Position numbers and translations under genes: made by a program. Under the pieces are notes generated by a model. It was not told the DNA's origin and searched no databases. It saw nothing but the letters and a program-made list of their open reading frames with translations. Shown piece after piece: positions 21,831-35,547 of a stretch of DNA of 64,000 nucleotides. The stretch spans positions 192,001-256,000 of the forward strand of contig OY771506.1 of NCBI GenBank assembly GCA_963674705.1, read 5' to 3'. Source of the DNA: Phycisphaeraceae bacterium. GTDB lineage: Bacteria; Planctomycetota; Phycisphaerae; Phycisphaerales; Phycisphaeraceae. Numbering within the stretch: the stretch's first letter is position 1; every line of letters starts with the position of its first letter.

Positions 21831-22415
21831 TTATTCGTTACAGAGCTTAGTATCGATAACCTCGCACATACTGTGGTAAAGCACCTGGTGGGCCTCCTGA
21901 ATCCTCGCTGAGGCTTCGTTCTGGACGATTATCTCCACCTGGGCCATCCCACGGGCTTTCCCGCCATCCCTACCCAGAAACGCCAAAGTCGCCAGATTCA
22001 ACGATTTGGCCTCTTCAAGGGCACGAACGATATTGGATGAATTCCCGCTGGTTGTGAGTACCAGCAGCACATCCCCGGGACGGCCGTAGGCCTGTACCTG
22101 GCGGGCAAAAATATTATCAAAGCCATAGTCGTTACTTACCGCGGTTAGCGTGCTAGGCGACTCGGTGAGGGCGATTGCGGGATAACCCTTACGATCCTGG
22201 ACAAACCGCCCTACAATCTCGGCCGCGATATGCCCGGCATCAGCGGCACTCCCCCCGTTGCCACAGATCAGCAGCTTATTGCCCTCCAGAAGAGCATCCA
22301 CGATTATTTGCGCCGCACGCCCCAGAGCCTCAGTATGCTGACTGAGATTCTGGATCGTCCGTACCGTGTCTGCGATGTTTCGTTCGAGGATGTCTTTGGC
22401 GTTGAGTTCGTTCAT
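21831..22415 (-). CDS. gmhA: Phosphoheptose isomerase (SIS domain)
   Basis: GNGGSAADA.H.AAE, NDYGF, TSGNS and RIQEAH motifs. Confidence 0.9.
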   Translation of the reverse strand: MNELNAKDILERNIADTVRTIQNLSQHTEALGRAAQIIVDALLEGNKLLICGNGGSAADAGHIAAEIVGRFVQDRKGYPAIALTESPSTLTAVSNDYGFDNIFARQVQAYGRPGDVLLVLTTSGNSSNIVRALEEAKSLNLATLAFLGRDGGKARGMAQVEIIVQNEASARIQEAHQVLYHSMCEVIDTKLCNE

Positions 22416-22454
22416 ATCTTTGGTTTTGAATACTTCTTTAAATTCTGTTGCTGT

Positions 22455-23549
22455 TTATCGCAGGCGGTCCAACAGATTGGCCAAAACGACACGGTTGTCG
22501 CCGCAGATGTAGTCGAGTGTACCGCCCATCCGGGCGAAGCTCTTGCAGAACCGCAGGTAGTACGCGGGGCTGTCCTTGGGTGGTTCGCCTCGGGTCCAGT
22601 CCCAGCCGCCGGAGTCCTGCAGGTCGACCACGGTCATGTGGTGGTTCTCTACACACTTACCTTCCTGTGCCAGCAGATTATTCGCCAGACTCATCGCTTT
22701 TTCGAACACCTGCGGGCTCATGATCGCCGAGCCTACGCTGAGGTATACCCCGCCGGAAAGGTTCTTCACGCCCTGGGCGAAAATACGTGTATCTGTAGCA
22801 CTCGCCCGGCCGATCGCCCCGCCGTGAAACATCGGGTGATTGGTGATGATGTCGTAGCCGATGCCCGGATGGACGGTCAGCGGGATCCTATGCTGGAAAG
22901 AGCCGGCAAGTGCTGAGTACTTCTTATAAGGATGTTCGACCTTGTGTCTGCCGGTAGAAAGACTGAATCGCTTCATTACGGCAAGTAAATCGGCCCGGGC
23001 GGCAGTCAGGGAATCCGCGGGATTATCAGCAATCTGTTTAGCTAGTGCCTCAGGCTCGGGTAGCGTGTAGCCCTCTTCGTAAACCAACCGCCCTACTGCT
23101 TCGCCCCAGCCGATGCCCTCAGCCGCACCAATCAGCGCCGCAAGGTTCAGGTATCTGCCTGTCTCGTCCCATGTACCGAAGCACCCTTTGGGCGTGTTGT
23201 CACGGACGGACTCGCTGGACTTGCCGTGGTATGCAAACTCCCAATCATGGATGATGCCCGCACCCTGTGTGGCAAGGTGCGTAATAAGGCCGGTCTCCAG
23301 CAGTGCATTGACCAATGGGCCGCAGCCATTTTTGATAACGTGTGCCCCGTAAACGAGCATGACAGACGCGTTGCGTTCGCGTGCCTTGCGGATGCGGTCT
23401 GCCAAGCGTTCGACCTGGCCTCGCATCGCACCGGGTTCTGGTGGCGGAGCAGACGGATCGATCGCGTCCTGCTCAATCTGGATATAACTCTTGCGCTTGG
23501 CAAGCGGCAGGACACGGATCTGGCTGGGATCGATCGCTTCGTAAGGCAT
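22455..23549 (-). CDS. Conserved protein, deoxyhypusine-synthase-like/GSU2086-like fold
   Basis: GAHVIKNG, G.IHDWE, TVH.GIG.DI and GSA..P.VF.KA motifs; family recalled, not searched. Confidence 0.6.
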   Translation of the reverse strand: MPYEAIDPSQIRVLPLAKRKSYIQIEQDAIDPSAPPPEPGAMRGQVERLADRIRKARERNASVMLVYGAHVIKNGCGPLVNALLETGLITHLATQGAGIIHDWEFAYHGKSSESVRDNTPKGCFGTWDETGRYLNLAALIGAAEGIGWGEAVGRLVYEEGYTLPEPEALAKQIADNPADSLTAARADLLAVMKRFSLSTGRHKVEHPYKKYSALAGSFQHRIPLTVHPGIGYDIITNHPMFHGGAIGRASATDTRIFAQGVKNLSGGVYLSVGSAIMSPQVFEKAMSLANNLLAQEGKCVENHHMTVVDLQDSGGWDWTRGEPPKDSPAYYLRFCKSFARMGGTLDYICGDNRVVLANLLDRLR

Positions 23550-23656: not shown

Positions 23657-23681
23657 AAAAACCCCCGTCTTTCGACAGGGG
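23657..23681 (-). terminator. Intrinsic terminator after ACP
   Basis: Minus strand CCCCTGTC-GAAA-GACGGGGG-TTTTT. Confidence 0.8.
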
Positions 23682-23710
23682 CTTCGGAGAAGAAACAGGT
23701 TATTGCCTGA

Positions 23711-23944
23711 TTACAGGTGCTTTTCGATAAAGGCGACAGCCGTGCTGATGTCTTTCACGCCCAAGGCGCCCTGCTCGTCCATCTCGATATCGAATTCTTC
23801 TTCAAATGCAGCGACCAGCTCGACGCTCTGGATCGATTCGGCGCCCAGATCTTCCACAAAACGTGAATCGTCTTTGACCATTGATTCATCGATCTTCAAG
23901 GTTTCCGCGGTCACTTTCTTAACACGTGCTAGGGTGTCTGACAT
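23711..23944 (-). CDS. Acyl carrier protein (atypical GAESIQ motif)
   Basis: 77 aa, acidic; F.EDLGA[E]S...VEL...FEEEF.IE pattern. Confidence 0.88.
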   Translation of the reverse strand: MSDTLARVKKVTAETLKIDESMVKDDSRFVEDLGAESIQSVELVAAFEEEFDIEMDEQGALGVKDISTAVAFIEKHL

Positions 23945-23965
23945 AACGTATAGCTCCTCTCGGGT

Positions 23966-25951
23966 TTAAGCGTTGACGGTCAACGATTTTTTCAGTTTCT
24001 CGATACGGGTGCTCAGGTCCTCAATGGCCTGTTGCATTTGTTTTACGAACTTATTGCCATCATACGTGCCGCGAACCGCTTCGAAGTCGGCAGCCACGTC
24101 GTCCGGCGAACCATCCTGGCCGAAGCCGACCTGTGTCACCGTGTCGAATTCCTTGCCGGCGTCGATCAGGATCAGCTTCAGGAACTTGCTCTGATCGGTC
24201 AGCAACTGATCGGCAAGTTTCTCAGCATCATCAGCCTTGAGCTCGGTCTCGAAGACATGCTTGTATGCTTCGAGTACCCAGGCCCACTCATCTTCATCAT
24301 ACGCTGCAAGGATCGCATCGAGCGCCTTGTTGAATCCAGCGAGGTCAGCAACCTTGCCCGACTCGACATCTGCATACAGGCTTTCGAGCCGATCGGCGGG
24401 CATCATCTGGCCACCGATGTCGACCCACTTCTTGCTGTATACGGCATCCGGCGCAGCCGCCAATGCCTTATCCAGTGAATCGCCCTTCTCGATCGCCCTT
24501 TCAATCCGTGCAACGACCTTCTCGAGCAGGTAGGTGTGGATACCTGAGCGATAGTACTTCACGCCGCCACGCAGCAGTACACGTTTAACCTGCGCGCCTT
24601 CGATCGTGACGGTGTCGACGGACTTGTCGGTCTTGTCCATTAAAGCTTTGATCCGGTCGTGGCCGTTGATCATCCGGCCGACTACGAGCGGACAGAAGAC
24701 GTCGAACGTAATACGGTCTCGCTTGAAGCCTTCCTTGCGGCGGTCACGTGCGGGCCACTTCGCGCCGTCGCGGACGGTGCCGACGGTCGAAAGGTTCAGG
24801 CCGGGCACGACCATGCAGCGACCATCGTGAGCCGCTTCAATGTGGCTGAACGGCAGGTCCGACAGGTCGAACGTGCGTGTGTGCTTACCCAGCACAACGG
24901 AGAACGGACCGACGCGGCAGGGCCACATCATGTAGCTGAAGCTGCCGGTCTTGCAGCCGCGTTCGAGCTTGCCCTCGTGGACGGGACCTAGCTTGTACAT
25001 GTGGTTGGACTGGTTGGTACCGCTGCCCGCGTTGTAGAAGCTGAACATGCCGGCGATCAGCAGTGTGGACTTATGGTGAGTTACGGTGTAAGGCCCGGCG
25101 AAAATGCTGCATGCCTCGCCGTGGAAGCCTTCGCAGTTAGCGAAGAAAACAGAACCTTCCGCCGAGTACTGCTTACCAATCTGACAGCCTTGGCCGACGA
25201 AGCTCTTGCTGACGATCGCGCCTTCGGTGACCTTGGATGCTTCACCGATGATAAAGCCGTGGGCCTGGATGGCGTCGCCGATCAACGTCGGCGCCGCGGG
25301 ATCGGAGAGGATCGTGCCGTTGACCAGTGCATCAGCACCCCAGACAGTCGCGGCCGCGCCGATATTCACATCAACGATGCGTGACACGCCTGCGATCTTC
25401 GCACCGGCGCCGATCGTGCCGGTGTCGGACTTCACTGCTGCAATAGCTTGCTCAGCGTAAGCCTCAAGCTTCTTGATGAAGTTGGGCTTGTAGCGATGCA
25501 GACACAACAGGTATGCAAACTGGCTGGACATCTCGTTGAAGAGCTTGATCTCACGACCGCCGCCTTCGTTGAGGACTTCGATCTCGACACCGTTGCCAAA
25601 CGTCGCACCGGGATTGGTCTGCAGCACACCGACGTCCTCGATGCACGCACCGTCACCGATGCAATAGTTGGCGATGTGCGAACCGATGCGGGCGATACGG
25701 GCATTGTCACCGACCGTGCAGCTGATCAGCGTCGCTTCCTCGATGCCGCTGGGACGCTCGATGCCCGAGGCACAAGTGACGTTACCGGCCAATGAGCCGA
25801 TCTTCACTTCGCCCTCGAACACAACATCGTACACACGTGCCGGATCGAATCCGTCGGCGACCGAGACCTTGGCACCCTCGGCGAACCGGCAACCCTGTGC
25901 CTTGAGTTGCTCGATCTGACTTGCCGTCAGCGTTTGATAATTCTTACTCAT
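23966..25951 (-). CDS. DUF4954-like protein with left-handed beta-helix-like repeats
   Basis: FGNG..V.NE.GGRE, GEACSIFAGPYTVTHHKSTLLIAG and GSG.NQSNHMYKLGP.H.G motifs recalled as DUF4954. Confidence 0.75.
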   Translation of the reverse strand: MSKNYQTLTASQIEQLKAQGCRFAEGAKVSVADGFDPARVYDVVFEGEVKIGSLAGNVTCASGIERPSGIEEATLISCTVGDNARIARIGSHIANYCIGDGACIEDVGVLQTNPGATFGNGVEIEVLNEGGGREIKLFNEMSSQFAYLLCLHRYKPNFIKKLEAYAEQAIAAVKSDTGTIGAGAKIAGVSRIVDVNIGAAATVWGADALVNGTILSDPAAPTLIGDAIQAHGFIIGEASKVTEGAIVSKSFVGQGCQIGKQYSAEGSVFFANCEGFHGEACSIFAGPYTVTHHKSTLLIAGMFSFYNAGSGTNQSNHMYKLGPVHEGKLERGCKTGSFSYMMWPCRVGPFSVVLGKHTRTFDLSDLPFSHIEAAHDGRCMVVPGLNLSTVGTVRDGAKWPARDRRKEGFKRDRITFDVFCPLVVGRMINGHDRIKALMDKTDKSVDTVTIEGAQVKRVLLRGGVKYYRSGIHTYLLEKVVARIERAIEKGDSLDKALAAAPDAVYSKKWVDIGGQMMPADRLESLYADVESGKVADLAGFNKALDAILAAYDEDEWAWVLEAYKHVFETELKADDAEKLADQLLTDQSKFLKLILIDAGKEFDTVTQVGFGQDGSPDDVAADFEAVRGTYDGNKFVKQMQQAIEDLSTRIEKLKKSLTVNA

Positions 25952-25968
25952 AACTCATTACCTTTCAG

Positions 25969-27159
25969 TCAGGCTTGACTCATTTCATAGGTATCGATGG
26001 CGATAGCCGCCTCTTCGTTTGTTGGTATTACCAGCACCGCAACTCTACTGGCGTAGGAACTGATCTTGGATGCACCTTTCGCGGCCTGGTTCGCCGCCGC
26101 ATCCAGTTCAACGCCGATCTGGTCGAGGTTAGAGCAGATCGCGGCACGGATATCTGCAGCGTTTTCACCGATCCCGCCGGTGAAGACCACAGCATCCAGT
26201 GTGCCCAGGGCAGCGGTGTATGCACCGATGTACTTCTTGATCCGGTAGGCGAAAACATCCAACGCAAGCCGAGCTCGTTTATCACCCTCTGCCGCTTTCT
26301 CGGTCAGGGTGCGCATGTCGTTAGACGTGCCGGATATCCCCAGCACGCCGGACTGCTTGTTGCACAACTTGTTCATATCCGCGACGGAATAGCCTTTACC
26401 CGCCAGGTAGAACAAGATCGCCGGATCAAAGTCACCGGTGCGTGTCCCCATGGGAACGCCTTCCAACGGCGTCAATCCCATCGAGGTATCCACACTCTTG
26501 CCCTTGCTGACAGCGGCGATTGAGCTGCCGTTGCCGAGGTGGCAGGTGATACAGTTGATATCATATTTTCCTTTTCCGAGCATCTCCGCCGCTTTTCGCG
26601 CGACCCAGCGGTGGCTGGTGCCGTGGAATCCATAGCGACGGACGCCGTACTTCTCATACAACTCGTACGGCAGAGCATACATGTACGCGACCTCGGGAAT
26701 GGTCGTGTGGAAAGCGGTATCAAAACACGCGATCTGTGGGACGTTCGGCATCGCGTGCTGCGCGGCACGGATACCGGTTAGGTTCGGTGGATTGTGAAGC
26801 GGCGCCAGGTCGGCGACCTTGTCGATCGAGGCGATCACCTCGTCGTTGATCACGACCGAACCGGTAAACGCTTCACCGCCATGAACGACACGGTGTCCCA
26901 CGGCTTTGATTTCATTAATGTCTTTGATGACGCCGTCATTGGGATCGACCAGCGCCTCGAGAATAATATCCATACCGGTGTCATGGTCCGGCACGGGCTT
27001 TTCAATCTTGTTTTTACTGCCGTCGTGTTCGTAGATCAGAGCCGAGCCTTCGTTGCCTATACGGTCAACCATGCCTTTTGCAATAACGTGTTGCTCGGGC
27101 ATGTCGAAGACTTGAAACTTGATCGACGAACTGCCGCAGTTGACTACCAACACAATCAT
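25969..27159 (-). CDS. ackA: Acetate kinase
   Basis: NCGSSSIK, GHRVVHGG, APLHN, FDTAFH, HLGNG and TGGIGEN motifs. Confidence 0.97.
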   Translation of the reverse strand: MIVLVVNCGSSSIKFQVFDMPEQHVIAKGMVDRIGNEGSALIYEHDGSKNKIEKPVPDHDTGMDIILEALVDPNDGVIKDINEIKAVGHRVVHGGEAFTGSVVINDEVIASIDKVADLAPLHNPPNLTGIRAAQHAMPNVPQIACFDTAFHTTIPEVAYMYALPYELYEKYGVRRYGFHGTSHRWVARKAAEMLGKGKYDINCITCHLGNGSSIAAVSKGKSVDTSMGLTPLEGVPMGTRTGDFDPAILFYLAGKGYSVADMNKLCNKQSGVLGISGTSNDMRTLTEKAAEGDKRARLALDVFAYRIKKYIGAYTAALGTLDAVVFTGGIGENAADIRAAICSNLDQIGVELDAAANQAAKGASKISSYASRVAVLVIPTNEEAAIAIDTYEMSQA

Positions 27160-27211
27160 GTGTCTGGCTCCTGTTGTGGTACGCCCCGGCCTGGCCGGGC
27201 AGGTCTAATTG

Positions 27212-28195
27212 TTATGTCATAGCAATGCAGATAGCGGTGGTTGCGACGACGTCCGAAGCGCTTGCGCCGCGAGATAAATCACTGATCGGTTTGGCAAAAC
27301 CCTGTAGGAACGGCCCGATCGCCGCCGCGCCCGCCATGTACTGCGTCAATTTGTATGCAATGTTGCCCGCGTCGAGGTCGGGGAAGATCAGCACGTTCGC
27401 CTGGCCGGCGACTTCGCTGGGCTCCTTAACCTTCTTCGCGGCGACCTTGCCGATGATCGCTGCGTCGGCCTGGAACTCGCCATCGATCATCAAATCAGCG
27501 GCGCGCTGCTTTACGATCGACAACGCTTTGGTGACCTTGTCGATGTCATCATGTGCGGCGCTTGCCTTAGTCGAGAACGAAAGCATTGCGGTGCGTGCAG
27601 GCTCACCCAGGAGCTTCTCGCCGCTGGCGTGGCTGGCCAACGCGATGTCCGCAAGTTCGGCCGCGTTCGGTTGGATGTTTACCGCGCAGTCGGCATAAAT
27701 GAACGGCTTATCCTTTGTGCCCTGGAAGTCGGGAACAACCATCAGGAAGAAGCTGCTGGCCGTTTCGATGCCGGGTGCGTATCCGACGGTCAGCGCGCCC
27801 GCCTGAATCACGGTCGCGGTCGCGTTGGCGACGCCGGCAACGAGCGTATCCGCATCGCCCTGCGCAACCATCATGCCGCCGTAGAAAAGCGCACGCTTAA
27901 CCATACGCTGCGCAATGCCTGACTTCATGTCGCGGGCCTTGGCGTAGGCTTCGGTGTAGGCTTCGAGTTTGTCGCTGGTCTTCGGGTCAATGGTCTTGAT
28001 ACCGTCCAGCGAGACACCGCCCTGCTCCGCGGCAGCCTTGATCTCTTCTTCTTTGCCCAAAAGGATCGGCTCGGCGATCCCTTGGTCCTTGATCTGTCTT
28101 GCGGCTTGCACGATCCGCTCGTCATGGCCTTCCGGTAGCACGACCGAACGTGACATCCCCTTGGCTTTTTCAACAAAATTGTCGACGATACCCAT
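27212..28195 (-). CDS. pta: Phosphate acetyltransferase
   Basis: LPEG, DCAVN..P, DGEFQADAA, FPDLDAGNI.YK and DLSRG motifs; SD before ATG 28195. Confidence 0.96.
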   Translation of the reverse strand: MGIVDNFVEKAKGMSRSVVLPEGHDERIVQAARQIKDQGIAEPILLGKEEEIKAAAEQGGVSLDGIKTIDPKTSDKLEAYTEAYAKARDMKSGIAQRMVKRALFYGGMMVAQGDADTLVAGVANATATVIQAGALTVGYAPGIETASSFFLMVVPDFQGTKDKPFIYADCAVNIQPNAAELADIALASHASGEKLLGEPARTAMLSFSTKASAAHDDIDKVTKALSIVKQRAADLMIDGEFQADAAIIGKVAAKKVKEPSEVAGQANVLIFPDLDAGNIAYKLTQYMAGAAAIGPFLQGFAKPISDLSRGASASDVVATTAICIAMT

Positions 28196-28239
28196 GCTGT
28201 GTAATCCTCCAAATGCATGGCTGAGGTTTATGTAAATGC

Positions 28240-28303
28240 ACGAATGACGAATGACGAATGCCCGAATGTCGAAGTACGGCGTTCGTACATTCGACATCCG
28301 GGC
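28240..28303. repeat. Heptamer (CGAATGA)n-armed hairpin element between nagB and pta
   Basis: cgaatgacgaatgacgaatgcccgaatgtcgaa ... ttcgacatccgggc. Confidence 0.7.
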
Positions 28304-28326
28304 TCCGTCAGTTCAGTCTGTCTGTT

Positions 28327-29109
28327 TTACGCCTGCGGCGCGCCGGGCTTCTTCATCTGGATCCAGTCGTAGTATTCACGCATCTTCAGTTCCGAAGCGG
28401 CATCGCTGTCGATGTAGAACTTCGTGTAGGGATGCATCTGCAATGCACTGGCGGTGTTCATGCAGCAGACCGGGCCTTCAATTGCTTCGGCGATGCACTT
28501 GGCTTTGCCTTTGCCGCTGGCCAGCAGGATGACTTCATCAGCCTCGAGGATGGTCCCGACGCCCATGGTGATCGCATAGATCGGCACGTCCTCGACCTTA
28601 TCGAAGAAGCGAGCGTTATCGTCGATGGTCTGCTTGGCCAGGGTTTTGAGCCGTGTGCGTGAGCTCAGCGAGCTGGTGGGCTCATTGAAAGCGATGTGGC
28701 CGTCTGAACCGATGCCGAGGATCTGGATATCGATCCCGCCGCATTCCACGATACGCTGCTCATACCACTGGCAGAAAGCTTTGAAGTTGCTCGTTGTGCC
28801 TGAAGGAACATGGATGTTCGATTCGGGAACGTTGACGTGCTTGAAGAAGTTTTCATGCATGAAGTAGTGATAGCTCTGATCGTGGCTGATCGGCAGACCA
28901 ACATACTCGTCGAGGTTGAACGTGGTGCAGCGGGAGAAGTCCAGGCCTTCTTCCTTGTGCATGCGGGCCAGTTCCTTGTACACGCCTAACGGTGTGGAAC
29001 CGGTTGCCAGCCCGAGCACCGCGTTGGGCTTACGGTTGACCACCTCTGCGATCTGCAGAGCGGCGGCCTTGCTGATTTCGTCATAAGTCGGCTTGATAAT
29101 AACTTCCAT
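28327..29109 (-). CDS. nagB: Glucosamine-6-phosphate deaminase
   Basis: LGLATGSTP, FNLDEY, GIG.DGHIAFNEP and AITMG motifs. Confidence 0.96.
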   Translation of the reverse strand: MEVIIKPTYDEISKAAALQIAEVVNRKPNAVLGLATGSTPLGVYKELARMHKEEGLDFSRCTTFNLDEYVGLPISHDQSYHYFMHENFFKHVNVPESNIHVPSGTTSNFKAFCQWYEQRIVECGGIDIQILGIGSDGHIAFNEPTSSLSSRTRLKTLAKQTIDDNARFFDKVEDVPIYAITMGVGTILEADEVILLASGKGKAKCIAEAIEGPVCCMNTASALQMHPYTKFYIDSDAASELKMREYYDWIQMKKPGAPQA

Positions 29110-29183
29110 CGTAACTCACTCCAGTGGTAGTAAAGTGTGACAATAACTGATCGGGTCGCATCGACCCGTGGTACATAACTCTG

Positions 29184-31172
29184 TTATAAGCCGGCCTTCA
29201 CAGACTGGCTGTTGTTTTTCTTGACCGTCTGCTCGGGTTCATCGTTCAAACCCTTCCAGAGAACAAACGCTTCCATCGCTTCATACTCGGCCAGGCCGAG
29301 CTTGTCGTAGATCTTGGCGGTCTCGCGGTTGCGTTGCTCTGCACGTTCCCAGAACTCACGTGTGTCAATACCCGGGAACAACGCTTTGTCTTTCTGCGAT
29401 TCGTGCTTGAAGATCGCGTTGAGCTTGCGCTCCAATTCCTTCGGCGACAGCGGCACCGCCATCTCAATCTGCTGCGGCTCCCATTCCTGCCAGGCGCCGC
29501 GATACATCCACAGTTCGCAGTCCTGCACCCACTTCTGGTCCTTGAGCCGACGCATCGCTTCAAAGATCGCAGCGAGGCAGACACGGTGTGTGCCGTGCGG
29601 GTCGGATAAGTCGCCGGCCGCGTATACCTGATGAGGCTTGACCTTCTCGAGAAGGTCCATCGTGATCTTGATATCTTCCTCACCGATCGGCTTCTTGCGC
29701 ACGGTGCCGGTCTCGTAGAACGGCAAGTCGAGGAAGTAAGCACGCTCGCTGGGCACGCCGCAGTAACGGGCAGCCGCACGGGCTTCGCCGCGACGGATCA
29801 ACGCCTTGATGTTCTGGACGATTTCCGAATCGACCTGGCCCGGCTTTTTCTGCCTGAGGAATTCCTCGATGTGATCCTCGATCTTCTGGGCTTCGTTGCT
29901 GTCCATACCGAACAAGTGGTTGTAATCCGAAGCGAAGTCAGCGAAGCGGATCGCGTCTTCATCAAATACAGCAATGCTGCCGGACACCTGATACGCAACG
30001 TGCACTTCGTGGCCCTGGTCGACAAGACGAATGAACGTCCCACCCATGGAGATCACATCATCGTCCGGGTGGGGCGAGAAGATCAGTACGCGCTTGGGCA
30101 CGACGTCGTTGGTCGTATCACGTGGGCCGGCCAATTGAATCGGCATACCCTCAACCAGACCACCGGGGCAGCCGCAGACCGTTGTCTGCATCGCACGGAA
30201 GACAAGACGGTTGATTTCATAGGACGGGCCGTGCTCAGCCAGCAGGTCCTGAAGGTGGTTGGCGTTGTAGTCTTCGTCTGTCAGTTTGAGGATGGCTTTC
30301 TCGGTCTTCATCGCCAGCCAGATCACGGCGTTGCGGATCTGCTGCCGCGTCCAATCAACCGTGCCACACTTCCAAGGCGTCTGGAAACGGGTCAGCTTCG
30401 CGGACGAAGCGGCATCCATGCAGATCATCGCGTTCGGATGTTCCTGCAGATAACTGGCCGCGACATGATCGGTGATCGGTCCCTCGATAGCCTGTCGCAG
30501 GATCGGGGCCTTGCCTTCACCAAACGCGATCAGGTAGACCTTCTTCGCGTTCATGATGGTCTTGACACCCATGGTGATGGCCTTATACGGCACGTTCTCC
30601 ACGCCGAAGAAGTCGCTCGCGGCGTCCTGACGTGTGAGTGGATCAAGCCAGATCAGACGCGTGCGGCTGACCTTGCTCGAACCCGGCTCGTTGAAGCCGA
30701 TGTGGCCCGTTCGGCCGATCCCCAGCAACTGGATGTCGATCCCGCCGGCGTCTTCGATCGCCTGTTCGTACGACTTGCAGAAGTGAGGGATCTCTTCAAT
30801 GCTGAGCGTGCCATCGGGGATGTGCACGTTGTCCGGATCGATATCAACGTGGTCGAATAGGTGCTCCTTCATGAACCGGACGTAGCTCTGCAGCTCATGG
30901 GGCTGCATCGGGTAGTACTCGTCCAGGTTGAAAGTGATCACGTTCTTAAACGACAGACCTTCGTCCTTATGAAGCTTGATCAACTCATCGTAAACCTCGG
31001 TCGGGCTGGAGCCGGTCGCCAGACCCAACACAGCCATCTTGCCTTCCGTGGCGCGTTTACGGATCAGGTCCGAGATCTCACGGGCAACCATCCGGCTGAC
31101 CTGGGCCGAGTTCTCAAATACCCTGGTAGGAATGTTCTCGTACATACATCTTTCTGGATCGTTGTCGATCAT
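29184..31172 (-). CDS. nagB: NagB deaminase fused to a PIG-L family deacetylase domain
   Basis: N-terminal GLATGSSP/NLDEY/GHIGFNEP; C-terminal SPHPDDD and DPHGTH. Confidence 0.92.
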   Translation of the reverse strand: MIDNDPERCMYENIPTRVFENSAQVSRMVAREISDLIRKRATEGKMAVLGLATGSSPTEVYDELIKLHKDEGLSFKNVITFNLDEYYPMQPHELQSYVRFMKEHLFDHVDIDPDNVHIPDGTLSIEEIPHFCKSYEQAIEDAGGIDIQLLGIGRTGHIGFNEPGSSKVSRTRLIWLDPLTRQDAASDFFGVENVPYKAITMGVKTIMNAKKVYLIAFGEGKAPILRQAIEGPITDHVAASYLQEHPNAMICMDAASSAKLTRFQTPWKCGTVDWTRQQIRNAVIWLAMKTEKAILKLTDEDYNANHLQDLLAEHGPSYEINRLVFRAMQTTVCGCPGGLVEGMPIQLAGPRDTTNDVVPKRVLIFSPHPDDDVISMGGTFIRLVDQGHEVHVAYQVSGSIAVFDEDAIRFADFASDYNHLFGMDSNEAQKIEDHIEEFLRQKKPGQVDSEIVQNIKALIRRGEARAAARYCGVPSERAYFLDLPFYETGTVRKKPIGEEDIKITMDLLEKVKPHQVYAAGDLSDPHGTHRVCLAAIFEAMRRLKDQKWVQDCELWMYRGAWQEWEPQQIEMAVPLSPKELERKLNAIFKHESQKDKALFPGIDTREFWERAEQRNRETAKIYDKLGLAEYEAMEAFVLWKGLNDEPEQTVKKNNSQSVKAGL

Positions 31173-31234
31173 CGTTTTCCGCCCTTCTGTCTATTGAATC
31201 AGTTCTAATCAGGTTCTGGTTAATGGTTGAATGT

Positions 31235-32416
31235 TCAGTCCGTTACTTGAAGTTGTTGGGTTTGGTTCTGGTTTTCGGAATCGCGTACCTCGCCGCCGAC
31301 CGTCATCAACGACGCCCACCGGCTTGTATAAAAGTGTGCAAGTACCAGGCTCGCAGCGATACGCGATGGCTGCGATTCGGTCCGGTCCCACAGATCTATC
31401 CGAAGGCGCTGCTCCAGTTGGCTCAGCGTCAACGCACGCACACGTTCGGTCAATGCTGTGGTAAATGCTTCACAAGTGGTCAATTCGCTGGCAAGTACAA
31501 GCCGACTGACACGTGTGAAGTTCACCGCGTTGGATAAACCCGTCGCCAGCAGGTCCAGCATCCGGTTCACTGCTTTATCCGAGCCATCATAATTGGCCGC
31601 ACGATCCGCCAGACAGGTATCCGAACCGTTGATCAGGCTCAGGTACCCAGTGGAGAAGATGCGTTCAAGACAACCGACCTGGCCACAGAAACAGACGGGC
31701 GCTTCCACCGGCAGCCGTGTGTGCCCAAGCTCGTTCGCGCCGGTGACACTGCCACGATTCGGCTGGCCGTTGATCAACAGCGTCGAACCCAGTCGGCCGT
31801 CACCCAGCCGGACGATCAACACATCGCCACCGGATTCCGCATCTACTCGGTGTGATAGCGCCCAACGGGCAGCCAATGCCACCGCATCGTTCTCCAGCGC
31901 GATCGGTACGCTCCCGGCAGCGTCATAAATCGGCATCAGACTCACCGGCTTGCCCGAAGGCACCGTCGGGCTGAACAGCATCTGGCTCGTTTTCAAATCT
32001 ATAAAACCGGGCGCTGTCAGACCCACCGCCAGTGTCTGTGCAGAAAGTTGATCCTGCAACAGCTCTACCGCGGTATTCAGTGTCTCTGTCCGGTCCTGCG
32101 TCACACGGGCAATTGGCTCACCCACTAACTTGCCCAACAGGTTCACACGGCCGATCTCGACACCACCGCGGTTCATCGCCAGCCCAAGCACGTGGCAGGA
32201 CTCCGGATCGATCTCCAGAGGCACACGCGGTCGACCTCGGCCATGAGCCTGAACGATGCATTCCCGCAGGATCTGCCGATCCAGTAAAACAGCCGTTTCG
32301 TTACCGATGGTGTTCAGCCGAATCCCCGTCAACTCATGCAGATCCGACCGACTCACCTGAGCGTGTCGGTAGACCATCCTGAGGATCGCACGTTGTCGGG
32401 GGGCCAGCAAGACCAT
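31235..32416 (-). CDS. ROK-family transcriptional regulator
   Basis: N-terminal HTH (SRSDL...GRGRP); ENDA; ELGH...C.CG..GCLE. Confidence 0.9.
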   Translation of the reverse strand: MVLLAPRQRAILRMVYRHAQVSRSDLHELTGIRLNTIGNETAVLLDRQILRECIVQAHGRGRPRVPLEIDPESCHVLGLAMNRGGVEIGRVNLLGKLVGEPIARVTQDRTETLNTAVELLQDQLSAQTLAVGLTAPGFIDLKTSQMLFSPTVPSGKPVSLMPIYDAAGSVPIALENDAVALAARWALSHRVDAESGGDVLIVRLGDGRLGSTLLINGQPNRGSVTGANELGHTRLPVEAPVCFCGQVGCLERIFSTGYLSLINGSDTCLADRAANYDGSDKAVNRMLDLLATGLSNAVNFTRVSRLVLASELTTCEAFTTALTERVRALTLSQLEQRLRIDLWDRTESQPSRIAASLVLAHFYTSRWASLMTVGGEVRDSENQNQTQQLQVTD

Positions 32417-32615
32417 CCGCAATATCTTTCCAATTAGATATTTATAGAAAAATTTGACCGAGGTTCGTACCGCTTGCTCGGTACCCGGTCTATTTAATTC
32501 ATCTGATGATAATAAATCGGGGCAAGATGTCAAGCCCCAATTATTATGAAATTAATATGAGAATTCCCGAATACCGCTTATACCAACCCACTTGGTGCCT
32601 TAGCGCCTGTTCGAA

Positions 32616-34010
32616 TCAGGCGTGGATCGCCCTGCCATCGACCGCCAGGGCGGCCTCTTTAACCGCCTCTGAGAGCGTCGGATGGGCGTGGCAGGTCCGG
32701 TATATGTCCTCGGCAGTGGCGCCGTATTCCATAGCTGCGGCACATTCGGCAATCAAAGACCCGGCATCGGGGCCGATGATATGCACACCTAAAACTCGCT
32801 CGGTCTTCTTGTCCGCCACGATCTTCACAAAACCGTCCGCCCCATCGATCGCGTGGGCCCGGCCATTACCTTTGAAGTAGAACATCCCCTTCTTGTATTC
32901 GTGGGCCTCATCCTTAAGGTCGCTCTCCGATTTGCCCACGCAGGCGATCTCAGGATCGGTGAAGACCACGGCCGGGATGACCTTGTAGTTCACATGGCCG
33001 TGACCGTTGACGATCTTCTCTACACAAGCAATGCCCTCTTCCTCCGCCACGTGCGCGAGCATGGCCGTGGGAATGACATCTCCGATCGCGTAGATATTGC
33101 CAACGCTCGTGCGGTAATCATCGTCAACGATGATATACCCCTTGTCGTCACGCTCGATGCCAATTTCATCGACACCCAACCCCTCGGTAAAAGGGGCACG
33201 TCCGACAGCGACCAGTACCCGATCCGCCTTGACGGGTTCAGCGCCTTCACGTTCGATGGTCACGCTCTGCTTGTTCGCCTTGACACCTATTACACGACTC
33301 TTGAGTTCAAAGTTGAGTCCTTGTCGAGCCAGCATCTTATGCGCGTGTCTCGCAAGCTCCGCATCCATGCCGGGTAACACGCGGTCCAGGTATTCGAGCA
33401 CTGTGACCTTGCTGCCCAACCGACGCCAGACCGAGCCGATCTCCAATCCAATGTACCCCGCACCGATGACCGCTAAATGCTTAGGTGGCTTGTCATAACT
33501 GAGCGCATCGGTGTTGGTGTCGATCCGGTCCTTGCTGATATCCACATTGGGAAGCGTCGCGGGGCGTGAACCGGTCGCGATGATGAGGTTCTCGGCGACG
33601 ATCGTTTGCTGCTTGCCCGCTTCATCCGTGACGGTGACCGACTTGTCCTCATTGATCGAGCCAAGCCCCTGGTAGTGCGTGATCTTGTTTTTCTTGAATA
33701 AAGCCGCGATCCCGCCTGATAGTGTCTGTACAACTTTATCCTTACGGGCGAGCATCGCCGAAACATCCAGCGACACGTCCTTAACCTTGATGCCGTGGAC
33801 ACCGAGGTGCTTGCTGGTCTTTTCATAAAGGTGGCTTGATTCGAGCAGCGCTTTACTTGGGATACAACCAACGCGCAGGCATGTTCCGCCAAGCTGGCTG
33901 TTCTTGTCGACACAGGCAACATCGAGCCCAAGTTGAGCAGCGCGGATAGCCGCAACGTATCCACCGGGCCCGGCGCCGATGATAATCAGATCGTGAGTAG
34001 TAGTAGCCAT
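32616..34010 (-). CDS. lpdA: Dihydrolipoamide dehydrogenase (E3)
   Basis: GAGPGGY, GGTCLRVGCIPSK and HAHPTLSE motifs; true start MATTT at 34010. Confidence 0.97.
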   Translation of the reverse strand: MATTTHDLIIIGAGPGGYVAAIRAAQLGLDVACVDKNSQLGGTCLRVGCIPSKALLESSHLYEKTSKHLGVHGIKVKDVSLDVSAMLARKDKVVQTLSGGIAALFKKNKITHYQGLGSINEDKSVTVTDEAGKQQTIVAENLIIATGSRPATLPNVDISKDRIDTNTDALSYDKPPKHLAVIGAGYIGLEIGSVWRRLGSKVTVLEYLDRVLPGMDAELARHAHKMLARQGLNFELKSRVIGVKANKQSVTIEREGAEPVKADRVLVAVGRAPFTEGLGVDEIGIERDDKGYIIVDDDYRTSVGNIYAIGDVIPTAMLAHVAEEEGIACVEKIVNGHGHVNYKVIPAVVFTDPEIACVGKSESDLKDEAHEYKKGMFYFKGNGRAHAIDGADGFVKIVADKKTERVLGVHIIGPDAGSLIAECAAAMEYGATAEDIYRTCHAHPTLSEAVKEAALAVDGRAIHA

Positions 34011-34016
34011 AATATT

Positions 34017-34140
34017 CGGGTATCGGGTATCGGGTATCGGGTATCGGGTATCGGGTATCGGGTATCGGGTATCGGGTATCGGGTATCGGATTCTATATCG
34101 TACCAACGCCGGTCCTGAGCAAAGCGAAGGGCCGGGCTTC
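34017..34140. repeat. Composite element: (CGGGTAT)x10 + CGGATTCTATATCGTACCAACGCCGGTCCTGAGCRAAGCGAAGG
   Basis: Direct read; near-identical to 35452-35547. Confidence 0.95.
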
Positions 34141-34173: not shown

Positions 34174-35439
34174 TCACACTTCCATCAGCATCCGCGCGGG
34201 GTCTTCCAGCGCCTGTTTGATACGGACGAGGAAGCTGACCGCCTCGCGGCCGTCGACCAGCCGGTGGTCATACGTCAGCGCGACATACATCATAGGCCGC
34301 ACTTCGATCATTTCTTTTCCATCCTTCGTTACCGCCACGGGTCGGCGTTGGATCGCGTGCATGCCAAGCACCGCGGATTGTGGTGGGTTTACGATCGGCG
34401 TGGAAAGCAACGAACCGAAGATCCCGCCGTTGGTGATCGTGAACGTACCGCCCTGCAAATCTTCCAGCGACAACTTGTTGTCCTTGATCTTCTGGCCGAA
34501 GCCGGCGATCGCCTTTTCGACCTCGGCAAAACTCATCCGCCCAGCATTACGCAAGACAGGAACCACCAGCCCCTTGCCCGTACCGACCGCGATACCGATG
34601 TCATAGTGATCTTTGTAGATGATGTCAGTGCCGCGGATTTCAGCATTCACCGCGGGGAACTGTTTAAGTGCATCAATACTCGCCTTGGTAAAGAAAGACA
34701 TGAAACCGAGCTTGATGTCGTACTTCTTCTGGAAGGCATCTTTGTACTGATTACGCAGCTCCATGACTGCCGTCATATCGACTTCATTGAATGTCGTCAG
34801 CAGCGCAGCGGTCTGCTGCGCCTGGATAAGCCGTTCCGCGATACGTTTACGCATCGGCGTCATTGGCACGGCTTCTTCGTCCGGACCGACAACCGATTCA
34901 TTCACAGATTCTTGTGACGGCGTATTGATCGCCGGCGCACTCGGCGCCGCCTTAGGTTGACTATCGAGGTAGGCTTTAACGTCTTCTTTCAGTAACCTGC
35001 CACCGGGCCCGGTCGGACGGATCTTGCTTGCATCTAAGCCGTGCTCATCGATTAGCCGCTTGGCGGCGGGCATGATCAAAGAAAGATCCGCCTTGGCTTG
35101 CGGCTTCTTGTCCTTCTTGGATGCCGGCTTCGATTCAGTTTCAGTCTTAGCTTCCGGCTCAGGCTTCGGCGCGGGTTTGCTTTCAGCTTCTGCCGCCCCT
35201 TCGCCCGCTTCCATGTAGCCGATCGTCTCGCCGACTACTGCCTCGTCGCCCTGCTTCTTGAGCAACTCACCGATCGTCCCATCAGCGGGAGCAGGCAGTT
35301 CGAGCGTGACCTTGTCGGTCTCGATCTCGACGATGGGATCGTCCTTGCTGACACGTTCGCCGGTCTTTTTAAGCCAACGGCCGATCGCGACTTCGGTGAT
35401 GGATTCGCCGACCTCAGGCACTATCAATTCAACGGGCAT
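34174..35439 (-). CDS. sucB: 2-oxoglutarate dehydrogenase E2 succinyltransferase
   Basis: Lipoyl ETDKV motif, E3-binding domain, LTTFNEVDM and YDHRLVDG. Confidence 0.97.
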   Translation of the reverse strand: MPVELIVPEVGESITEVAIGRWLKKTGERVSKDDPIVEIETDKVTLELPAPADGTIGELLKKQGDEAVVGETIGYMEAGEGAAEAESKPAPKPEPEAKTETESKPASKKDKKPQAKADLSLIMPAAKRLIDEHGLDASKIRPTGPGGRLLKEDVKAYLDSQPKAAPSAPAINTPSQESVNESVVGPDEEAVPMTPMRKRIAERLIQAQQTAALLTTFNEVDMTAVMELRNQYKDAFQKKYDIKLGFMSFFTKASIDALKQFPAVNAEIRGTDIIYKDHYDIGIAVGTGKGLVVPVLRNAGRMSFAEVEKAIAGFGQKIKDNKLSLEDLQGGTFTITNGGIFGSLLSTPIVNPPQSAVLGMHAIQRRPVAVTKDGKEMIEVRPMMYVALTYDHRLVDGREAVSFLVRIKQALEDPARMLMEV

Positions 35440-35451
35440 GGTTATCTATCT

Positions 35452-35547
35452 CGGGTATCGGGTATCGGGTATCGGGTATCGGGTATCGGGTATCGGATTC
35501 TATATCGTACCAACGCCGGTCCTGAGCGAAGCGAAGGTCCAGGCTTC
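35452..35547. repeat. Composite element copy 2: (CGGGTAT)x6 + same core
   Basis: Direct read. Confidence 0.95.

Follow-up and report, generated by a model that had tools for sequence, protein, structure and literature searches.

A probable dedicated acetyl-carrier module of amino-sugar metabolism in an operon of a Phycisphaeraceae bacterium

Organization of the operon

The window, that is, the whole stretch of 64,000 nucleotides (nt) analysed here, was taken from the genome of a Phycisphaeraceae bacterium (assembly GCA_963674705.1, contig OY771506.1, positions 192,001 to 256,000), and the operon in question lies at its positions 23657..32416. Seven open reading frames, all on the minus strand, were assigned by family profile scores to a ROK protein, a NagB/PIG-L fusion, NagB, Pta, AckA, a DUF4954+DUF6819 protein and an acyl carrier protein (ACP), with gaps of 62, 74, 131, 52, 17 and 21 nt between successive genes. 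Comparison across genomes shows this ACP subfamily to occur together with DUF4954, NagB and one of three acetyl-thioester enzymes, and these probably represent an undescribed dedicated acetyl-carrier module of amino-sugar metabolism. The initial annotation had described seven co-oriented, closely spaced genes ending in a terminator after the ACP, and the coordinates, families and hairpin were all confirmed. The features are as follows (aa, amino acids).

32506..32533, minus strand: predicted sigma-70-type promoter, TTGACA-N16-TATCAT (11/12 consensus positions match)
32493..32516, no strand assigned: AT-rich pseudo-palindrome of the TTTATT-N12-AATAAA type, candidate ROK operator (overlaps the -10 box; in 7/7 aligned upstream regions)
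31235..32416, minus strand: ROK-family repressor, NagC/Mlc-like, 393 aa (PF00480; top NCBIfam families NagC and Mlc, both below cut-off)
29184..31172, minus strand: NagB-PIG-L fusion of the PRK02122 type, 662 aa (NF002557, 1016 bits; PF01182 and PF02585)
28327..29109, minus strand: glucosamine-6-phosphate deaminase NagB, 260 aa (TIGR00502, 316 bits)
27212..28195, minus strand: phosphotransacetylase Pta (TIGR00651, 315 bits against a cut-off of 311)
25969..27159, minus strand: acetate kinase AckA, 396 aa (TIGR00016, 521 bits)
23966..25951, minus strand: DUF4954-DUF6819 protein, 661 aa (PF16314, PF20683; His293 codon at 25073-25075)
23711..23944, minus strand: dedicated acyl carrier protein, 77 aa (PF00550; Ser37 codon at 23834-23836)
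23657..23683, minus strand: intrinsic terminator with GC hairpin, GAAA loop and U tract (from the sequence; fold z -3.2; 0/200 shuffles equally stable)

Both hexamer regions of the promoter align in 7/7 genus-level upstream regions. With an operator matrix built from 6 upstream regions, the candidate operator, itself a member of the training set, scored 30.2, against 19.9 for the next site in the genome and maxima of 17-19 in shuffled genomes; a wider ROK regulon was rejected, as a second strong operator site was absent from the genome in the matrix scan. The ROK protein, which had been listed as a plain pathway member, is better read as a repressor from its top-scoring families. From the conserved promoter, the overlapping candidate operator and the NagC/Mlc-like ROK protein, we infer that the operon is locally repressed and inducible. 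A second ROK repressor, 42% identical to that of the operon, lies at G000:C1:678890-680017, divergent from a nucleotidyltransferase-like gene and near a microcompartment locus. The terminator was not listed by the consensus scan; by inspection of 10 relatives, a hairpin with U tract was seen in 3/10, and the rest had hairpins lacking a clear one. A recent foreign origin was rejected by composition (GC 0.56-0.59 in the six long genes, 0.566 in the genome). In genome G007 the operon region is present a second time (L044:8770-11969), with frameshifts in ackA and DUF4954 from either assembly error or decay.

The operon NagB has D67, D136, H138 and E143, which we take to be catalytic by analogy with Escherichia coli NagB. 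In F. johnsoniae a chitin-locus gene was called NagB and could not be expressed, according to PMC5127042. A second NagB-like/PIG-L-like fusion of 770-800 aa, in which the NagB motifs are altered and, of the PIG-L motifs, only the first can be recognised, adjoins the module at several other loci (L060:3281-5602, L068:4195-6513, L077, L079, L094, L099, L101, L104 and L110).

The names given to close homologues place the genome within the Phycisphaerae. Elsewhere in the genome were found glmS, an N-terminal-only GlmU, an alt-GlmU (TIGR03991) over cut-off, a nagA-like gene below cut-off, a separate AcpP among fabH/fabD/fabG/fabF-like genes (read by eye), a PduL-type transacylase, further AckA paralogues and one phosphopantetheinyl transferase (PF01648), and the operon Pta is the sole Pta of the PTA_PTB type. 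Because glmS, alt-GlmU, nagA-like, AcpP, PduL and AckA genes exist outside it, the operon is considered accessory in its host. Two suppositions were thereby rejected, namely that the DUF4954 protein is the only acetyltransferase of the genome (an alt-GlmU over cut-off is present) and that glmS is missing (it was found outside the operon).

DUF4954 protein and its relation to alt-GlmU

Structural comparison of the model of DUF4954 residues 165-420 with left-handed beta-helix (LbH) proteins by VIA-align gave Z scores of 10-13, with GlmU of M. tuberculosis (Z 13.1, root-mean-square deviation 2.7, 106 aligned) tied with other LbH proteins. When the full-length protein was used, GlmU and LpxD were on top at Z 9, near the helical background. 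The profile comparison was clearer: hhalign of the DUF4954 profile against 31 alt-GlmU proteins gave a probability of 95.8 and an E value of 7e-9 over 204 columns, with His293, Asn307 and Ser315-Asn316 in register with the N-x-G-x-G-T-x-x-S-N motif of alt-GlmU. His293, presumably catalytic by analogy with E. coli GlmU, is kept in all 40 DUF4954 rows shown, distant long paralogues included, and His292 is not kept. Since the search patterns partly dictated E274 and S315-P323, their conservation in the GTDB set was left out of the argument.

Less sensitive or differently aimed searches gave little. Foldseek with the DUF4954 model returned no match at E<=0.001, the single sequence found only chance helical matches among solved structures, the corresponding profile search returned weak LbH matches out of register, and BLASTP against the alt-GlmU of the same genome found no significant match. 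No nucleotidyltransferase Pfam domain and no NCBIfam family was matched at E<=0.01, so that the protein falls outside the definitions of bifunctional GlmU (TIGR01173/TIGR03991). GlmU-like names were given by Atlas at 0.86-0.87 and were treated as a lead only. The protein extends past its GlmU-like part by about 170 N-terminal and about 240 C-terminal residues, with many invariant positions absent from GlmU; its C-terminal domain is helical.

By profile comparison, made with alt-GlmU alone, the DUF4954 protein is an LbH protein homologous to the alt-GlmU acetyltransferase and not specifically to LpxA/LpxD. The initial annotation had proposed an LbH acyltransferase acting on amino sugars after the manner of LpxA/LpxD; the beta-helix and a conserved His in an acetyltransferase-type motif agree with that proposal, but the nearest relative is GlmU/alt-GlmU. 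A distant DUF4954 subfamily of about 730 aa (L048:13178-15373, L249-L254) keeps His293 and the Ser-Asn-His motif, and some of its copies adjoin glmS or nagB.

Dedicated acyl carrier protein

DUF4954 was found in 14/61 related genomes, with an ACP within about 2 kb in all 14 and a DRE-TIM enzyme gene after the ACP in 3 of them. The GTDB loci were the best 80 of 599 confirmed, ranked by likeness to the operon DUF4954 and so clade-enriched; among these, the ACP was found in 53 and NagB in 55, and by record titles they cover about 8 phyla (Planctomycetota, Bacteroidota, Ignavibacteria, Spirochaetota, KSB1, Calditrichia, Gemmatimonadota, Latescibacterota and Chloroflexia, phyla and classes mixed). 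This outcome of a synteny check set beforehand, together with the distinct subfamily of the protein, bears out the earlier assignment of the ACP to the module.

Helix II of the operon ACP reads S-I-Q-S-V-E-L-V-A-A, and the signature of the linked ACPs is S-x-Q-S-x-E-L-x-A. The phosphopantetheine Ser at the start of the helix (Ser37) is present in 62/62 linked ACPs, followed by Gln or Lys at +2 (60/60), Ser at +3 (59/60) and Ala at +8 (60/60), and D, T and M occupy the corresponding positions in the 27 unlinked ACPs compared. The operon ACP lacks the features of AcpP (helix II D-S-L-D-T-V-E-L-x-M, fab context), is 34% identical to the AcpP of the same genome and carries 8 basic and 19 acidic residues. 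It matched neither the CitD nor the MdcC family, and at E<=0.01 Pfam yielded the PP-binding and ACP domain family only. Its identification as the fatty-acid AcpP was rejected because of the separate AcpP gene and the distinct helix II.

Among 161 evenly sampled Bacteroidales genomes, 48 of which have DUF4954, the special ACP (about 121 bits, against 75-84 for AcpP) was found in 2, in both cases adjoining DUF4954. In a tree of 124 DUF4954 proteins (those of <560 aa and two near-duplicates left out), the 59/59 ACP-tagged proteins fell in one clade of 80 (support 0.70), with none among 37 others or 7 long paralogues; a further member of this clade, L038, has an ACP overlooked by the tagging. On these sequence comparisons the ACP is a distinct, dedicated subfamily and not the fatty-acid AcpP. 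At one locus (L064:11910-12951) two ACPs of the special type occur, one after DUF4954 and one before a citrate synthase-like gene.

Acetyl-thioester partners

Among the 53 ACP loci, an ADP-forming acyl-CoA ligase was the only acetyl-thioester enzyme in 27, Pta/AckA in 12 and a DRE-TIM enzyme of the citrate synthase type in 8; ligase and synthase occurred in 2, Pta/AckA and synthase in 2, and none in 2, so that 51/53 have some such enzyme, and the ligase and Pta/AckA were never found together. Several close homologues of the DRE-TIM enzyme are labelled citrate (Re)-synthase by JGI, which is an annotation. Re-citrate synthase consumes acetyl thioesters and cannot supply them, so the acetyl group in the synthase-only loci would come from the sugar.

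The operon Pta scores above the TIGR00651 cut-off and keeps the catalytic D-x-S-R motif (Ser308-Arg309), and Gln131 stands where an Arg (Arg133 Mt / Arg135 Pg) contacts the CoA beta-phosphate; the binding of that phosphate by the Arg of P. gingivalis Pta is described in PMC6461089. This Arg was found in 0/16 linked and 26/28 unlinked Ptas (the latter being the best matches of 50 genomes, 30 loci minus two linked ones) and is kept in four solved Ptas. The single unlinked Pta with Gln belongs to G109, a genome having the special ACP. The charge of a basic helix (93-104 in the operon Pta) is +3 to +5 in linked and -3 to +2 in unlinked Ptas. In the linked ligases a Pro stands in the N-terminal CoA-domain loop (24/24 rows caught by the pattern) where Gly is found in 4 unlinked paralogues and 3 solved relatives, and this loop presumably contacts CoA. 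An Asn-to-Ser change in the linked ligases was rejected as diagnostic, since it was seen in 23/24 and a solved CoA enzyme also has Ser.

Lost CoA contacts and a basic patch are as expected for docking an acidic ACP. These changes suggest that the acetate-handling enzymes were rebuilt to accept the special ACP, and the operon Pta is proposed to be an acetyl-ACP:phosphate transacetylase. The functional tie of Pta/AckA to the module, assumed at the outset, is strengthened by these substitutions and by the recurrence of one of the three enzyme types at the ACP loci. At two loci (L054:9120-9905 and L096:6366-7205) a FolE2-family gene separates ackA from DUF4954.

Carrier-less DUF4954 in Bacteroidales

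Most Bacteroidales DUF4954 proteins are thus carrier-less. In the 161 genomes, DUF4954 and alt-GlmU occurred together in 14, DUF4954 only in 34, alt-GlmU only in 107 and neither in 6, so that 34/40 genomes without alt-GlmU have DUF4954; kin are not independent here, and the significance of this complementarity is overstated accordingly. Near the 40 Bacteroidales DUF4954 loci (L219-L258) were glmS in 10, nagB in 7 and an hflX-like gene (by eye) in 12. Genome G109 is the mirror of the studied genome: alt-GlmU, the special ACP and a Re-citrate synthase-like gene form an operon (L322:39-3212), its DUF4954 is carrier-less, and an altered Pta-AckA pair is located apart, flanked by a ROK kinase-like gene on one side and a divergent PIG-L-like gene on the other (L319:6100-10378). 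From the alt-GlmU alignment, the complementary distribution, the glmS/nagB neighbours and the swap in G109, DUF4954 is predicted to be a glucosamine-phosphate N-acetyltransferase family.

The carrier-less branch is probably biosynthetic. B. thetaiotaomicron has DUF4954 (BT2257), and neither GlmU type was found in it at the thresholds applied. BT2257 is a candidate glucosamine-phosphate N-acetyltransferase for gut Bacteroidales without GlmU, in which this enzyme has been missing. An unidentified enzyme of this activity in bacteria with truncated GlmU has been inferred in a 2026 preprint, for which DUF4954 is likewise a candidate. In data taken from PMC13114119, the P. vulgatus DUF4954 gene in rich medium tolerates insertions (77% of sites), as does glmS (74%), and DUF4954 bears no essential mark for five other strains; both observations weigh against an essential role. 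In mice its loss made P. vulgatus unfit (log2FC -2.27, 11/11), as for nagA, nagB and the NagB/PIG-L fusion in the same data. BT2257 is absent from the nine supplements of PMC8121099, which give nagB as nearly essential.

Proposed mechanism and direction of flux

In the proposed mechanism, the NagC-like ROK protein would repress the operon, and the DUF4954 protein would move, through His293, the N-acetyl group of N-acetylglucosamine (GlcNAc) phosphate (the 6-phosphate being likelier than the 1-phosphate) to the phosphopantetheine of the ACP. NagB would take glucosamine-6-phosphate off as fructose-6-phosphate and ammonia, and thus pull the uphill transfer, and the altered Pta with AckA would unload acetyl-ACP by way of acetyl-phosphate to acetate and ATP, or hand the acetyl group over to CoA. 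In other genomes acetyl-ACP would be unloaded by the ADP-forming ligase or by Re-citrate synthase. The need for a private carrier would arise because such a carrier, unlike the shared acetyl-CoA pool, can be kept nearly free of acetyl groups.

It is very probable that a dedicated acetyl-ACP links DUF4954, NagB and the acetyl-thioester enzymes. Granted that link, a catabolic net flux is the somewhat likelier direction, and the complete reading, a private shuttle from the acetyl of GlcNAc-phosphate through ACP to ATP or citrate, is given an even chance. The catabolic direction is favoured because citrate synthase, a consumer of acetyl only, is the sole acetyl partner in 8 loci, because a private carrier is needed only if its pool must stay unloaded, because glmS is never near the ACP-clade loci (none among the best 80 GTDB loci, against 10/40 Bacteroidales DUF4954 loci), and because the operon is under repressor-type control and accessory in its host. 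The initial annotation had held that N-acetyl groups are conserved through a carrier and Pta/AckA; the dedicated ACP and its linkage to Pta/AckA speak for this, while the choice between conservation and acetylation of glucosamine-phosphate follows from the indirect arguments just given. The combined claim, that energy is conserved by de-N-acetylation of GlcNAc-phosphate on a private ACP (one ATP per sugar, or citrate) over about 8 phyla and that BT2257 is the missing Bacteroidales acetyltransferase, is put forward tentatively, at rather less than an even chance.

Several points weigh against the energy-conserving shuttle. The acetylation by GlmU and GNA1 is usually regarded as one-way. In a sketch with assumed constants, the amide-to-thioester transfer is uphill by about +18 to +33 kJ/mol, and a net ATP gain is obtained only at low ammonium and acetate (e.g. 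acetate below about 1 mM at 1 mM ammonium, middle value); this sketch speaks to feasibility, not to fact. At residues 275-325, where the active site is proposed to lie, the DUF4954 model cannot be relied on. The clade of ACP-linked DUF4954 has the modest support given above, and two genomes with a member of it show no special ACP. The linked Ptas form one clade (support 0.62) and hence represent one event, as does the change in the ligases, and they retain the second CoA Arg; mutation of the first costs P. gingivalis Pta only 21% of its activity, as stated in PMC6461089. The PIG-L domain of the operon fusion has both of its motifs, PHPDDD and HxxH (at 367 and 524), and could act as a hydrolytic deacetylase in its own right. 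The absence of nagA and fab genes noted initially holds among the seven operon genes, but nagA is over cut-off in 25/50 module-bearing genomes (and nagA-like genes, below cut-off, occur in 10/14 DUF4954-positive relatives), and the module as a general replacement of nagA was therefore rejected. Because nagA is common in module genomes and the PIG-L motifs are intact, a hydrolytic route may run beside the transfer, and the two may coexist or act on different substrates. NagB does not fix the direction, as nagB also neighbours carrier-less DUF4954 (the 7/40 loci above, one of them ACP-linked). Finally, nagB but not glmS bears an essential mark for two Bacteroidales strains in rich medium, which would allow for NagB working in reverse.

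Alternative explanations

The main rival keeps the carrier module and reverses it for biosynthesis or salvage: AckA and the altered Pta (or the ligase) would spend one ATP to load acetate on the ACP, DUF4954 would acetylate glucosamine-phosphate, and NagB, running backwards from fructose-6-phosphate and ammonium, would provide a glutamine-independent route to GlcNAc-phosphate. This would be thermodynamically easy, and it fits the carrier-less DUF4954 proteins, complementary to alt-GlmU and often adjoining glmS, as well as the acetylating, downhill use of acetyl-ACP by E. coli GlmU reported in PMC8666670. A second acetyltransferase candidate was present in 30 of 46 ACP-bearing genomes, borderline in 3 and lacking in 13; the 13 favour the rival and count against the catabolic shuttle, and the 30 speak for the latter (count by hand, genome completeness not given, long paralogues counted as candidates). 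However, the rival leaves unexplained both the 8/53 loci with citrate synthase as sole acetyl partner and the need for a private carrier, which carrier-less DUF4954 manages without; the host already has glmS and alt-GlmU, and the repressor control and NagB/PIG-L neighbour suit an inducible catabolic operon. It is accordingly judged unlikely, though by no means negligible.

A carrier module with another substrate or product, such as an O-acetylated or otherwise N-acylated amino-sugar donor, or a citryl-type acyl that is assembled on the ACP and then transferred to glucosamine to give a small metabolite, is improbable. The N- and C-terminal parts of DUF4954 with their many invariant positions would suit it, an ester donor would ease the thermodynamic problem, and the DRE-TIM enzyme is named by homology only; yet tailoring, export and glycosyltransferase genes do not recur in the 87 clustered loci, Pta/AckA and the ligase suggest a short acyl group such as acetyl, and DUF4954 and alt-GlmU replace one another in genomes and in the ACP operon. 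Ordinary GlcNAc catabolism and acetate metabolism, in which PIG-L hydrolyses, NagB deaminates, Pta/AckA use CoA, and ACP and DUF4954 are passengers, would agree with the intact PIG-L motifs, with the ROK-nagB-nagB/PIG-L neighbours in P. vulgatus, where DUF4954 is located elsewhere (by locus tags), and with the operon Pta being the only one of its type in the genome, but it is very improbable in view of the ACP synteny across phyla, the distinct helix II of the ACP and its confinement to a single DUF4954 clade, the parallel changes seen in Pta and ligase, the operon of G109 that joins alt-GlmU, ACP and synthase, and the PduL-type transacylase and other AckA available to CoA chemistry.

Comparison with known systems

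Citrate lyase and malonate decarboxylase hold an acetyl thioester on a private carrier in catabolism, their carriers being of other families and bearing a phosphoribosyl-dephospho-CoA group, whereas the operon ACP is a PF00550 four-helix protein. PlsX converts acyl-ACP to acyl-phosphate, the conversion proposed for the altered Pta, but handles long-chain acyl groups. LpxA/LpxD share the LbH fold (Z about 12) and transfer between ACP and an amino sugar; they use long-chain hydroxyacyl groups, UDP-sugar acceptors and AcpP, whereas the His/Asn motif of DUF4954 matches GlmU-type enzymes, no NCBIfam match of DUF4954 to LpxA/LpxD was found, and lipid A (lpx) and fab genes are not among the recurring neighbours. 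The NagC-NagA-NagB operon has the same ROK repressor, NagB with catalytic residues and amino-sugar context, but its NagA hydrolyses the acetyl group to free acetate, and the studied operon has a transferase, a carrier and acetyl-thioester enzymes without nagA.

Alt-GlmU is the nearest relative by its profile match, its complementary distribution and its replacement of DUF4954 beside the ACP in G109; it has about 400 residues against about 660, with 20% identity in the matched part, and TIGR03991 is itself a hypothetical equivalog, so that the activity of alt-GlmU is an annotation. E. coli GlmU binds and uses acetyl-ACP, with a KM of 20 uM against 400 uM for acetyl-CoA (Whaley et al. 2021, PMC8666670), and is thus, like the predicted DUF4954 enzyme, an LbH acetyltransferase for glucosamine-phosphate accepting a protein-bound acetyl thioester. 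It borrows the fatty-acid AcpP loaded by malonyl-ACP decarboxylase in a biosynthetic role, in contrast to the private carrier of the operon; DUF4954 further differs in having no detected uridylyltransferase domain, in its extra terminal parts and in its partners (Pta/AckA, ADP-forming ligase or citrate synthase).

The module was not described in the literature searched (subscription journals lay mostly outside its coverage), and the mentions of DUF4954 found there did not, by their listings, concern its function. New here are the findings that DUF4954 and alt-GlmU are complementary in distribution, that DUF4954 divides into carrier-linked and carrier-less clades, that the CoA sites of both Pta and ligase are altered, and that alt-GlmU takes the place of DUF4954 beside the ACP in G109, together with the candidate operator. 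The comparisons suggest that many bacteria move the GlcNAc acetyl group through a protein-bound thioester instead of simple hydrolysis. If this is true, a phosphopantetheine ACP would be placed in central sugar metabolism, with the first Pta, ADP-forming ligase and citrate synthase acting on a protein carrier. If the flux is catabolic as well, ATP would be gained from an amide bond for which textbooks give only plain hydrolysis; since chitin, peptidoglycan and mucin sugars are abundant, this would bear on the energy yields of Planctomycetota, Bacteroidota and other degraders. In either direction, GlmU-type LbH homology and module context give DUF4954 a testable function, as the initial annotation had sought to do.

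Other features of the window

Past the terminator, at 21831-23549, lie a GSU2086-family gene (NF052581) and a GmhA-like SIS gene, the order of which is constant across the genus and is not found in other taxa. Short tandem repeats with a 7-base unit and a YPIPDTR-like translation occur at 34000-34106 and 35400-35470, between 2-oxoglutarate dehydrogenase genes.

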